A stretch of DNA of 64,000 nucleotides from Octopus vulgaris (Eukaryota), in assembly GCA_951406725.2 (NCBI GenBank), contig OX597822.1, positions 52,762,001 to 52,826,000 of the forward strand, in the 5' to 3' direction. The translations under genes were made by a program, and so were the position numbers. This document shows positions 1-61,519 of the stretch, piece by piece (the first letter of the stretch is position 1; every line of letters starts with the position of its first letter). Below the pieces are notes generated by a model. The model was given only the letters and a program-made list of their open reading frames with translations, made no database searches and was not told the DNA's origin.

Positions 1-411
1 GGTTTAACTTTACGGCGTATCGTCAGATCCCAAAACTCGTTGGCATAAGGCCTCTTTAAAATATAGAGGGGAAAAGCGGGCCATGTTTGCATTTTAGGAG
101 ATTTTTGGTGGCATTTTGGGGACTGCAAGATGGCGGCACACCCGAGAGTTGATAGCTAATTGGAGAGGAAGATAATCCGCTATTGTTTACCCTCGTAGCT
201 GAATGATAGCGGTACGATCGGAAGTCGATAGCCCTTAGCAAAGGGAGATAATCTCCTTGCTTACATTTGTCTTTGTATCGAGACTTTTCCCCTCCATATT
301 TGAAAGCGGTGTTAGGCCAACAGCGCTTGGGGTCTGATGATACGCCATAAAATTAAACCCTTTATGGACGAGAAACTCAGTGTAACCCCATAAATCGGCC
401 TTCACCAGGAA
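1..411. mobile_element. Inverted-repeat cassette with outward-facing hammerheads (left end cut off by the window edge)
   Basis: 1-76 is an imperfect inverted repeat of 283-359; the right arm runs into a full HHR; ends at (TA)n from 412. Confidence 0.7.
328..390 (+). ncRNA. Type I hammerhead ribozyme motif
   Basis: Stem I tggggt/acccca, core CTGATGA (334-340), stem II ccataaa/tttatgg, GAAAC (372-376), cleavage triplet GTA (382-384). Confidence 0.8.
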
Positions 412-599
412 ATATATATGTATATATATATATATATACACACACATATGTATATATATGCATACACATATGTATATATATGCTTACACATATGTATATA
501 TATGCATACACATATATATAATATGCATATATACACGGGTATATATATATATTCTATCTATCTATCTATCTATCTATCTATCTATCTGTATTCTATTCT

Positions 600-1557
600 A
601 TGTATGTATGTATGTATGTATGTATGTATGTATGTGTGTGTGTGTGTGTGTGTGTGTGTGTGTGTGTGTGTGTGTGTGTGTGTGTGTGTGTGTGTGTGGA
701 TGAATGGATGGATGGATGGATGGATGTACTTCTCTGATGTACTTTTATCTGTCTTGTATTTAGATGAAGTTTTATGATTAATGTAATACAACATTCAAGT
801 TCATTTGGGTAAACACAGTTTTTAGTCTAACCTCAATTAATTTAATCTAATTATGGATTTGTTATGCTGTTCTATTCTATTCTGTTCTATTCTATTCTAT
901 TCTATTCCATTCTTTTATAGTCCATCTATTCTATCTATCTAATGCAGAATTGCACCTCTCCTTGAAAAATGCATTTTTTGGAAATTTTTTTTTTGTTTGT
1001 TTTACATATTCATAATTTTCGACATTTAAAACTTAGGAATCCCCAAAAAAAAAATTTCCAAAAAATGCATTTTTCAAGGAGAGGTGCAATTCTGCATTAG
1101 ATAGATAGAATAGATGGACTATAAAAGAATGGAATAGAATAGAATAGAATAGAATAGAATAGAATAGAACAGAATAGAATAGAACAGCATAACAAATCCA
1201 TAATTAGATTAAATTAATTGAGGTTAGACTAAAAACTGTGCTTACCCAAATGAACTGGAATGTTGTATTACATTAATCATAAAACTTCATCTAAATACAA
1301 GACAGATAAAAGTACATCAGAGAAGTACATCCATCCATCCATCCATCCATCCATCCATCCATCCATTCATCCATCCATCCATCCATCCATCCACACACAC
1401 ACACACATACACACACACATACATACATACATACATACACACACACACACACACACACACACACACACACACATACATACATACATACATACATACATAC
1501 ATACATACATACATACATACATACATACATACATACATACATACATACATACATACA
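600..1557. repeat. Large fold-back (inverted duplication) including mirrored microsatellites
   Basis: 724-992 is a near-perfect reverse complement of 1045-1330; flanking (TATG)n/(TG)n/(GATG)n are mirrored as (CATC)n/(CA)n/(CATA)n; about 50-bp spacer. Confidence 0.9.
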
Positions 1558-1614
1558 TGTATATACGTGAGTATGTTTATGCATGTTTTCACATACACTT
1601 ACATATAGCATCTC

Positions 1615-1977
1615 TTAGAACCTGATGTCGAATTTCAAATTGGAGACATCAGGGAGAAAGAGGTGAATGATTCTGTGAGAAAAGCTAGAGCAAAGAGTGC
1701 TCCAGGAAGCGATGGCGTCTCGCATAAAGTATACAAGCGTTGCAATCGTCTATGAAAGAAGCTCTTTGTCTTGTTCCGACAGCTGTGGTGCAAAGAGACT
1801 CTAGCAGTGGATTGGCATAAGACAGAAGGCATATATGTGCCCAAGGAAACCAATGCAGAGACTATAAACAGTTCAGGCTGGCTGATATCCGTGTTGACTG
1901 TGGATGGCAAGATCTTTATGGGAATTCTCGGAAGAAGAACAGTAACATATTTGCAGAGTAATGGATATGTTGGGTGA
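1615..1977 (+). pseudogene. Non-LTR retrotransposon RT N-terminal fragment (R2/Hero/NeSL-like)
   Basis: KARAKSAPGSDGV..KVYKRC, then YVPKE...ISVLTVDGKIFMGILGRR..YLQSNGYV, with a stop codon. Confidence 0.7.
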
Positions 1978-59252: not shown

Positions 59253-60714
59253 TTTAGGGAAGGTAACTATAGCACAGCTGATCAATATGAATAATTAAAA
59301 AATTGAACAAAGGAAATGAGAATCATAGCATAGCCCAGCTGAAATGTCACTGAAGAATCGAGGAATGGCAGCAGTTTTCAATAAAAATTCAAATTTATTC
59401 ACTGGGCAGGTAGTGGATGGGGGTAATGATGAAACTGACCTTGATTGAGGCAAGTTGGTGAAAAGATGGAAGAATGTTACTGTACAACGTGTTCAGCAGC
59501 TGAGGGAAATGCTGTACTTGTAAAAAAAACAACAACAAAAAACACCCAGAAAAATATAGTTCATAGCACCATATTTATGGCAGCTTCCTGAATATACTCT
59601 TTTCTCCGTTTTTTTTAAATGTAGAGGAGGAATGTTATAGGACCGATCGCAGCCTCATTTCTTCCTGGAAATATTCCTCGTTCGTATTTTCCTTTCGTTT
59701 CCAGGCTATTTGGAGGAATTGCAGTTCATTGGTGTGATTACAGCTGTCTGCTACCTCTTTTGAAAATATTCTCGTTCTCCACACTTGCATGTTGCAATGT
59801 CAGTCAGATAGAAGGCACATGGAATGGTATCAGTCAAAGAAATCGATGCAACGTTTGTGCTTCCGTATCCACATCTTCGTTTCTGCCAAAAGAAATGAAA
59901 AAAAAAAAAGAAAATATATATATAGATATATATATATAAAGAACAAAAACAAAATCTACTACTACTACTACTACTACTACTACTACTACTACTACTACAA
60001 CTGCTACTGCTGCCGCCGCCGCCGCCGCACGGATTTACAATAACTCTGCTTCCACCTAACCTCACAGCTGAGACATTTTAGAGGCGTTTCTGCGCCTGCT
60101 AGAAACAACAGCAGGCAAATATCCTCTCTCAAATCTCAACGATTAAAAAAAAAAAAAATCTATATAAAATATACTGAAGAATAAGAATGTAGTTCCTGAT
60201 ACGGAAAAAAGACAGGATGGTCACTGTTGGAAAATCTACTACTACTACTACTACTACTACTACTACCGCTACTGCTGTTGCTGCTACTGGAGGTGGCGGT
60301 GGTGATGATGGTAGTGGTAACAGCAGCAGCAGCAGTAGTAGTAGTAGTAGCGTTTGTTGTTCGTAAAAATCATTGATATATTTTAGTGTTGCACGTTCGT
60401 TAAGTGGATCGAGAAACACGTGTTTATGACGTATCACTAACTAATCACCCCTCTTACACACACATCTCTAACTATCACCCGTCTTACTGACGATATTGGA
60501 AACATCATTAAAATATTCCCATTACATATAATTAGTTATATTGAGGTTGTTGATACTACATACCTGCAGCATCCTCTTCACATTCTAATATCAACATCCA
60601 TCCATCCATCTATCTATCTATCTATCTATCTATCTATCTATCTATCTATCTATCTATCTATCTATCTATCTATACCTATCTGACTATCTATCTGTCTGTT
60701 TGTTTGCATGCATA

Positions 60715-61131
60715 CGATCTTTTCGGTTTGAACGGCAGTTTTTTCTAGCGGTGTCATATGAAATTGTCACCCATAATTATGACCCTAGTATCGATCTATT
60801 GCATTTCAATCTATTTTAGGGTTAGGGTTAGGGGGGGGGGAAAGAGTATCTTTTTTTCGTCAGAAATGTAAATAAACCCAATCTGTTTCTTAAACGAGGG
60901 ACATATTCATACGGCACAGAATGTTTTTTTTTACCTCAATAGACGTCATTGATTGGTTGAAATTGTAGATATTGAAGATAAAACAACAAATATCTTACAA
61001 ACTATAGAATTTTCTCAATAAAGCCAAGAAAAAAAGATGTTTTATAAACACATTCTACCAGTATACGAAGTTTAAAATTTTTAGTTACCTAGAAATTATG
61101 TTAAAAACTGCCGTTCAAACCGAAAAGATCC
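60715..61131. mobile_element. MITE with 28-bp TIRs and 8-bp TSD, carrying internal TTAGGG repeats
   Basis: TIR gatcttttcggtttgaacggcagttttt / aaaaactgccgttcaaaccgaaaagatc; TSD catgcata at 60707-60714/61132-61139. Confidence 0.9.
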
Positions 61132-61341
61132 CATGCATATCTATCTATCTATCTATCTATCTATCTATCTATCTATCTATCTATCTATCTATCTATCTGT
61201 CTGTCTGTCTATCTATCTGTCTGCACGTCTCTCTCTCTCTCTCTCTATATATATATATATATATATATATATATATATATATATATATATATATATATAT
61301 ATATAATATATATATATATATATATATATATATATATATAC

Positions 61342-61519
61342 GCGAGAATGAAGCAACAAGAATGGATAGGTTCCTATCCATTCTTGTTGCTTCATTCTCG
61401 CTTATAATCACCCCACATTACTGTATTGTTAAATCAGTATAGTTTTTTTGGTGCATCTAAGTTAGGTACCATATTCAAGTAAATTCATTTAAATTAACTT
61501 GAATCTTTATTGCTTTTTG
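61342..61519. repeat. Perfect 29-bp-arm palindrome plus tail between (TA)n runs
   Basis: gcgagaatgaagcaacaagaatggatagg-tt-cctatccattcttgttgcttcattctcgc. Confidence 0.9.

Follow-up and report, generated by a model that had tools for sequence, protein, structure and literature searches.

We have analysed a stretch of 64,000 nucleotides of the Octopus vulgaris genome (52762001-52826000 of contig OX597822.1, one contig of a 2.8-Gb, 227-contig assembly), here called the window, in which many fold-back cassettes carrying hammerhead ribozyme (HHR) motifs lie between (TA)n repeats. We think, with a probability of roughly 85%, that these cassettes are 5'-truncated 3' ends of Penelope-like elements (PLEs) inverted head to head, that the fold-back likely arises when both nicked strands of a (TA)n target prime reverse transcription at two fixed ends of the element, A and B, and that two families of units without an open reading frame (ORF), F46 and F43b, are likely moved by the same enzymes. 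A preliminary description of the window had recognised the PLE logic; however, it went on to propose a radiation of protein-less mini-elements as a new class, which is an overcall and is wrong for most of the families that could be resolved.

A first body of evidence is the continuity of the cassettes with protein-coding elements. The inverted arms were located by self-BLAST of the window with simple sequence repeats (SSRs) masked; the unmasked search was swamped by microsatellites. Every cassette was then queried against its own genome, each search giving 276 to 5047 first-look candidates of which the best 40 were scored, and the resulting figures are not copy numbers. For five of the 11 named families, longer copies in this same genome show the sequence to be the 3' end of a PLE that encodes a reverse transcriptase (RT) and a GIY-YIG endonuclease (EN); judged by motifs, F1, F2, F32 and F61 would belong to the Hydra clade and F56 would be Neptune-type. 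F1 (1-411 in window positions, which are used throughout) is a fold-back of the 3' pseudo-long terminal repeat (pLTR) of a Hydra-clade PLE with old copies. Its right arm, on the plus strand, has the HHR core at 334-340, a predicted cut after 384 and end A at 411, followed by (TA)n, and its left arm, on the minus strand, extends about 51 nt before the window and then into the tail, the sequence that reaches end B. The preliminary description was right to read a fold-back with an HHR here, but the cassette runs off the window, 360-411 is arm and not tail, and the left end does not lie in (TA)n. An EN ORF stops at the start of the F1 sequence, or is located no more than 400 nt from it, in 21 of 34 loci, and one locus (L149) carries RT, linker, EN and the F1 pLTR together with an inverted pLTR.

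F2 (2221-2591) is folded back from the terminal sequence of a Hydra-like PLE, where it lies at the 3' end behind a microsatellite-rich 3' untranslated region (UTR) of about 2 kb. The left arm (minus) has end A at 2221, the HHR core at 2327 and the predicted cut at 2258, while the right arm (plus) begins inside stem II and ends with a tail at 2519-2591 (end B). In locus L288 an RT-EN ORF at 2852-4591 is followed by the UTR and by F2 at 6681-6970, with an inverted copy at 1913-2133. The test for partners, a PLE ORF at most 400 nt from the family sequence, is weak where UTRs are long, and F2 itself scores 0/98 by it. The Hydra 3' UTRs measure 2-3 kb and consist mostly of TA/TG/CA microsatellite (L254, L258, L288), and every insertion brings fresh TA targets with it.

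The remaining three families with coding partners are young. F32 is found twice in the window, first as a 5'-truncated, non-inverted copy on the plus strand that ends at end B (32722-32925); its type I HHR is complete, with the core at 32794, a stem I of 6 bp, a stem III of 4 bp and a predicted cut after 32832. The second copy is a fold-back (42991-43193) with its left arm on the minus strand from end B (42994) to 43127, its right arm on the plus strand from 43128 to end A at 43193, and cores at 43121 (minus, stem I cut) and 43133 (plus). This family is the pLTR of a Hydra PLE; in L259 the pLTR at 5523-5726 is directly followed by an open ORF of 722 aa, and in L147, L261 and L262 F32 caps both ends of fold-backs that enclose EN or RT-EN. 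F61 (61342-61519), with a fold-back of 31 nt and a tail of 118 nt, is likewise the pLTR of a Hydra PLE, and its partner locus L346 reads inverted pLTR, pLTR, ORF, 1.6-kb UTR, pLTR and TA. F56 (56645-56825) is folded back from the 3' terminus of a Neptune-type PLE and is truncated within the HHR variant of the family, and L526 and L527 run from RT through a CX4CxxC linker, a CCHH EN and a UTR of about 1 kb into F56. Besides these, several copies of PLE ORFs have stops or frameshifts, and the arrangement of pLTRs (partial tandems), an inverted 5'-truncated copy and a tail at one end was seen in L346, L258, L259 and L147.

The clade assignment was approached through the proteins. Those of F32 and F61 (L259, L346/L348) show in alignment RW[RK], DKT and CxCX5C motifs and CxxC/CxH around E and N, with no CCHH, a set that matches the Hydra-clade diagnostics of section 11 of PMC8557442. 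In the partners of F1 and F2 the linker and the EN motifs are recognised in fragments; compared by eye, one partner ORF is similar to Hydra-1_Obim. The L527 ORF combines a CX2-5CxxC linker with a CCHH GIY-YIG domain, as expected for Neptune, and its PF01541 match (E 1.5e-6) passes the cut-off. A homolog search with the Hydra ORFs yielded 764 relatives. Asn-rich inserts occur in the partner ORFs of F61 and F2 (L346, L348, L286), as in the rotifer Penelope of PMC3846280, and L345 holds another Hydra family, with its own pLTR and an HHR-like motif, in two tail-to-tail copies at 97% identity.

The second body of evidence is the structure of the ends. Two classes of 3' end, A and B, are distinguished in every family; they are separated by 35-118 nt, and TA-type repeats follow most of them. 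With CA/TG runs also accepted, an SSR follows 86 of 87 ends in F2, 29 of 30 in F56 and 29 of 32 in F61, the background for a slightly narrower pattern, (TA)4 within 34 nt, being 3.3% (250/7686 positions); flanking by (TA)n is weaker in the old F1 (17/35). We counted 119 fold-backs from eight families, leaving aside three additional ones because of an inner TA array. One arm ends at A and the other at B in 109 of the 110 that could be classified, nine have one end off-bin, and the lone A+A case proved to be mis-binned, its flank being B sequence. Whole-cassette queries favour A+B, and hence a fresh set of 120 loci was drawn by tail-only or internal queries. In this unbiased sample all 35 fold-backs are A+B (12 from F61, 8 from F2 and 15 from F46), counting those with both arms and the junction inside the locus; the remaining loci are non-inverted, duplicate or too long. 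The tail-only search with F32 gave no return although the family is abundant, which leaves it outside the unbiased set.

The fold-back junction lies at a different position in each copy, cassette length is not constant within a family either (F2 cassettes measure 353-1994 nt), and non-inverted and head-to-tail copies are common. Because the junctions differ from copy to copy, the cassettes are insertion products and not elements of the kind of miniature inverted-repeat transposable elements (MITEs). That they might be MITEs, or fold-back DNA transposons targeting TA repeats with incidental HHR matches, is an explanation to which we give almost no credit. The long terminal inverted arms and the TA flanks do look the part, and a MITE finder would plausibly pick up the cassettes; on the other hand, the tail makes the ends asymmetric, junction and length are as variable as just described, copies without inversion or in head-to-tail order abound, RT/EN ORFs terminate in these very ends, and within each family the HHR core is conserved. 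The preliminary description fared well on these points: fold-back cassettes between (TA)n are found by masked self-BLAST and sequence inspection where it had placed them, and its reading of PLE origin, with HHRs in the pLTRs, an inverted 5'-truncated copy plus a tail, and (TA)n targeting, not of MITEs, agrees with our results. Terminal inverted repeats of DNA transposons, which it had named as evidence that would speak against it, do not bound the cassettes; the ends are asymmetric and common to RT/EN elements, and the junctions variable.

The predicted HHR cut is upstream of both ends; nevertheless, 61 of the 70 arms in the unbiased set run through the cut site, with 2/70 stopping within 6 nt of it. 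The latter figure rules out that arm 5' ends are set by the cut; the 13/44 obtained from all F61 copies comes from short copies selected by the query. The A+B rule and the read-through of the HHR fit priming by two strands at two internal RT starts on uncut or re-ligated RNA. In the mechanism that we propose, each nicked strand of the (TA)n target would prime a cDNA of its own, with synthesis beginning at A on one strand and at B on the other, so that in vivo the two strands would use different start sites on one ribonucleoprotein, perhaps a dimer. Both cDNAs would stop early and be joined head to head by microhomology or snap-back, giving the order arm, spacer, inverted arm and tail, with both HHRs reading outward. 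The RNA template would cross the HHR site uncut or re-ligated, as a multimer or circle, and F46 and F43b would borrow Hydra or Neptune protein in trans. We infer both the exclusive pairing of A and B with the strands and the joining step. In vitro work on the Poseidon PAc (Frangieh et al. 2024, PMC11167929) is close to this scheme: there AT-rich DNA is nicked and extended on both strands, RT starts internally at two sites, one at either limit of the tail, uncut RNA is the main template with no need for HHR cleavage, and a dimer is predicted.

A different route from the same PLE origin would be snap-back self-priming of a single cDNA, with trimming by the endonuclease at site A, and not a second priming event, as the source of the asymmetric tail; we take this to be possible though doubtful. 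It draws on the near-equal 5' ends of many arms in F61 and F2, on the overlaps of 1-8 nt at many junctions, on the AT-rich, TA-like site that constitutes end A in every family, and on earlier proposals of self-priming and EN resolution (PMC3846280; PMC8557442). After snap-back from a B-primed cDNA the B arm could not be shorter than the A arm; among the unbiased fold-backs, however, the longer arm is A in 22/35 and B in 11/35. Moreover, F46 shows no correlation between arm 5' ends (2/15 within 25 nt), and the two RT start sites bounding the tail were observed in vitro (PMC11167929). The breakpoints of the arms are correlated in F61 and weakly in F2 but not in F46, and the joining step proposed above is therefore tentative. 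Snap-back self-priming may contribute to the junction; by itself it leaves the longer A arms unexplained.

F46 and F43b extend two-strand priming beyond coding elements. F46 (46024-46868) is a fold-back of a young 546-bp head-to-tail unit, with cores at 46368 (minus) and 46642 (plus), end B at the left and end A at the right. Each unit has one type I HHR and no ORF, and four tandem units plus an inverted copy stand at G000:C2:8129255-8131708. A PLE ORF lies within 400 nt of F46 in 1/85 loci, separated by a microsatellite; this EN ORF (L485) was judged a neighbour from another family. F43b (43293-43665) is a fold-back of an ORF-less tandem unit of about 507 bp, with its window core at 43570 (minus) reading GGAA for GAAA; the unit has one HHR, an AUC triplet and a palindromic loop III, and the tandem arrangement comes from a single head-to-tail pair (L303, period about 507) whose second core is decayed. 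A second copy (35822-36030), 85-91% identical to 43296-43662, has both arms truncated below the HHR. The only PLE ORF near F43b (L345/L162) has a different pLTR of its own and is a neighbour rather than a partner. By this organisation, head-to-tail ORF-less units with a type I HHR, both families match the class of non-LTR retrozymes. F46 follows the A+B rule in all of its 15 unbiased fold-backs and therefore points to mobilisation in trans by PLE protein; movement of F46 and F43b by Hydra or Neptune enzymes is likely. Mobilisation in trans, as claimed in the preliminary description, thus fits these two families and not F1, F2, F32, F56 and F61, which continue into ORFs. F46-like sequence is also found in contigs of four presumed-RNA runs, and these contigs are silent on ends and strand.

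For four families no coding partner was found among the candidates scored. F3 (3672-3977) is a fold-back with an HHR variant in the left arm (U3, core 3760), a degenerate right arm and a tail of 35 nt; the family core is U3-A8 in 13/16 motif matches. F3 copies have several hundred nt of non-coding upstream sequence in common, no PLE ORF lies within 400 nt in 41 loci, and walking in the 5' direction, done for one stretch, gave only further non-coding sequence. F25 (25634-25916) is an old fold-back with a minimal HHR in the left arm (core 25718, U3); the preliminary description had the fold-back right, but this copy has a tail at neither end. F50 (50610-51160) is also old, with the left core at 50722 (minus) and the tail reaching about 51160, beyond the limit of 51000 first given to this fold-back; in its right arm a (TA) insertion interrupts the HHR, whose core has decayed. 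Fragments of EN found close to F50 and F25 were judged to be neighbours from other families. F52 (52354-52742) is a fold-back cut below the U3 HHR variant of the family, known from two motif matches in other copies, with a tail of 84 nt. Another fold-back, F45 (45110-45952), was absent from the earlier list of cassettes; it has end A on the right and the tail on the left, arms at 45190-45941 by masked self-BLAST, and a CUGAUGA half-core with no type I HHR.

It is on such families that the idea of dedicated protein-less, pLTR-only ribozyme mini-elements mobilised in trans could lean, as it is true of F46 and probably of F43b, and no partner was found for four families. As an account of all the families we consider it very unlikely, and as a general statement already refuted, since F1, F2, F32, F56 and F61 continue into RT/GIY-YIG ORFs in longer copies, and cassette lengths and junctions vary freely within a family, as the range of F2 exemplifies.

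The hammerhead motifs themselves are well above chance. Strict descriptors give one match each in the window, and no hammerhead family is among the Rfam matches listed (150 of 288), which show only repeat-driven miRNA-type matches. A relaxed descriptor, which tolerates either one additional base following A9 or an unpaired position where stem II begins and takes loop III lengths of 0-12 nt, all known from published PLE HHRs, gives 7-11 matches. Thirty shuffled versions of the 53,212 bases outside SSRs, made block by block with dinucleotides preserved and scored with the identical descriptor, give a mean of 0.13-0.53 (maximum 1-2); the descriptor was loosened only after inspecting the sequence, and the shuffles were scored under the same loosened rule. 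The excess over shuffled sequence foreseen earlier is therefore present, and the earlier figure of about 15 HHRs in about 10 families is fair if degenerate partner arms are counted. Motif matching across family copies finds an HHR or HHR variant in all 11 named families, the variant cores being those of F3, F52 and F56. The four places previously taken for HHR-less analogues (35822, 52353, 56643 and 61342) all belong to HHR-bearing families and are cut below or inside the ribozyme; the F61 copy ends a few bases below the predicted cut site of its family. Many partner arms are decayed or begin inside the ribozyme, and the cassettes at 2221-2591, 3672-3977, 25634-25916, 43293-43665 and 50610 have an intact core in one arm or in neither, the core defects being GGAA instead of GAAA at 43570 and U3 at 3760 and 25718. 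Wherever a core is present, the polarity reported earlier, left on minus and right on plus, holds; because both insertion ends are 3' ends of the element, inverted head to head, this polarity is no separate evidence. Self-cleavage is predicted from the motifs. The F46 core is invariant save for position 7 (A in 17 and U in 13 of 30), which suggests selection, and its monomer folds at a z-score of -4.0. The F56 variant (U3-A8, GCAA for GAAA), whose activity is only predicted from the motif, recurs in 20/20 motif matches of this young Neptune-type family (L401-L419).

Several results weigh against our interpretation. The full PLEs expected from the terminal sequences were found for five of the 11 families, and none turned up for F3, F25, F50 and F52 among the best 40 of about 300-5000 candidates per search; nor did tail-versus-tail BLAST give a convincing donor for F46 or F43b. 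The Hydra and Neptune assignments come from motifs and protein comparison by eye rather than from a tree, and the Pfam search gave nothing significant on the Hydra ORFs themselves, with RVT_1 only on the homolog P0077 (E 9e-6). Among eight window HHRs that were folded, only one has a clear shuffle z-score (-3.4), and several do not reach the HHR fold as monomers. Exceptions to the end rule were seen by eye in old, uncounted families, namely the F25 cassette without a tail and an F50 copy (L097) that looks A+A, and L258 is ambiguous, being cut near A by another insertion. The arm 5' ends lie within 25 nt of each other in 7/12 of the F61 fold-backs (permutation p 1e-4) and are weakly correlated in F2 (5/8, p 0.015; p 0.2 with all 30 copies). 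Finally, the Poseidon experiments saw no difference between strands in start-site use in vitro (PMC11167929), whereas nearly every fold-back counted in this genome combines an A end with a B end.

Most of the components are known. Craig et al. (2021, PMC8557442) described HHRs and a (TA)n bias in PLEs, together with 5'-truncated copies in inverse orientation and a tail that is often confined to one end, and named the formation of the inverted and tandem structures as an open question; Hydra and Naiad families of octopus appear in their supplement with a preference for (TA)n and, in the case of Hydra, an HHR. The Hydra clade, including Hydra-1_Obim, shares with our families an RT, the CxCX5C linker, RWK, DKT, a C-terminal GIY-YIG without CCHH, insertion into (TA)n, a canonical HHR, the inverted 5'-truncated copy and the one-end tail, already reported in octopus. 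However, the 3' UTRs of F2, F32 and F61 are microsatellite-rich and 1.5-3 kb long, whereas described Hydra elements measure <3 kb in all; the tails are 35-118 nt versus 30-40; and several distinct families occur here, some young with open ORFs, none of them matched computationally to a named consensus. The F56 partner has the RT, CX2-5CxxC linker, CCHH GIY-YIG and pLTR with a minimal HHR of the Neptune clade, to which it would belong by its motifs; it differs in the HHR variant. Cervera and de la Pena (2014, PMC4209133) reported opposite-strand HHR pairs 100-700 bp apart, attributed to truncated PLEs, and the traits of PLE minimal HHRs, namely an additional base following A9, a helix III that is palindromic or missing, U3-A8 variants and extreme family diversity, are all found here too; in the present case they can be assigned to particular families, with their end structures, in a genome of cephalopod type. 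Metazoan non-LTR retrozymes, defined by the same authors (2020, PMC7229834) and reported in molluscs (mussel), resemble F46 and F43b in their ORF-less head-to-tail units, single type I HHR per unit and low GC. They have been proposed, and argued by Li et al. (bioRxiv 10.64898/2026.07.22.740005), to be non-autonomous PLE derivatives. In the text available, the retrozyme papers base this link on HHR type, co-occurrence and pLTR homology, not on insertion structure; F46, in contrast, bears the PLE insertion marks directly, with two fixed ends, inversion and a (TA)n target. A study of 31 recently active PLE families in an octopus genome (PMC13282606) contains neither the word hammerhead nor retrozyme in the portion available, and PMC8969392 treats inverted pLTRs and 3' extensions as curation pitfalls. 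In the literature searched, exclusive of subscription papers, Repbase/Dfam and preprint supplements, we found no count of A+B pairing and no octopus retrozyme.

Other features were noted in the window, whose SINEs are of octopus appearance. Two further minimal-HHR families of the GAAAC-GUU type, at 17461-17504 (minus) and at 31081 (plus, with a copy at 47721-47873), are not folded back there, and both are common in the fetched loci. At 27794-28165 there are two CUGANGA cores with GAAA ahead of the second, an order similar to that of F45 and possibly a permuted ribozyme; other copies run, as read by eye, into the 3' end of a long interspersed nuclear element (LINE) with a restriction-like endonuclease, and this sequence was set aside as a different, LINE-like element 3' end. 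A decayed Hydra-like linker/EN fragment lies at 54245-54601 (minus; tblastn E 1.8e-5). Inverted-arm repeats also occur at 28249-28332 and 49600-49850, the latter recurring elsewhere with TA-flanked ends, and 555-1499 is a large fold-back whose arms include microsatellites, with an inner hairpin at 944-1095. A tandem array of 28 copies of a 105-bp unit, 98% identical, is found at 8471-11415. The sole clear host-type gene seen is a DUF229 ORF of 660 aa, uninterrupted, at 57312-59294 (minus; Pfam E 2.8e-125).

Inverted 5'-truncated copies, one-sided tails, (TA)n targeting, HHRs and opposite-strand HHR pairs are thus all published, and most of the cassettes are ordinary PLE biology in a PLE-rich genome, of modest mechanistic value. 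What our analysis adds is that each family has two fixed ends, A and B, and that fold-backs almost always have one of each, the retrozyme included, so that PLE insertion marks are now documented on an ORF-less retrozyme. For annotation, it matters that the fold-backs resemble MITEs and that long microsatellite-rich 3' UTRs conceal the link to the ORF. Besides, the A+B rule and the HHR read-through bear on the question of how the inverted and tandem structures of PLEs form. We lean, if only slightly, towards the view that a PLE complex acting on one RNA, with a strict division of A and B between the strands, would in a single step produce both the inverted pLTR and the tail on one side, equally in Hydra, in Neptune and in ORF-less retrozymes, and that octopus-type retrozymes would thus have no integration route of their own but share that of the PLEs, starting from RNA that is uncut or circular. 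If this division is true, the young families with open ORFs, F32, F61 and F56, together with the young passenger F46, would suit an in vitro test. In our opinion, the pattern of one short end and one long end likely records how both strands of the target prime reverse transcription.

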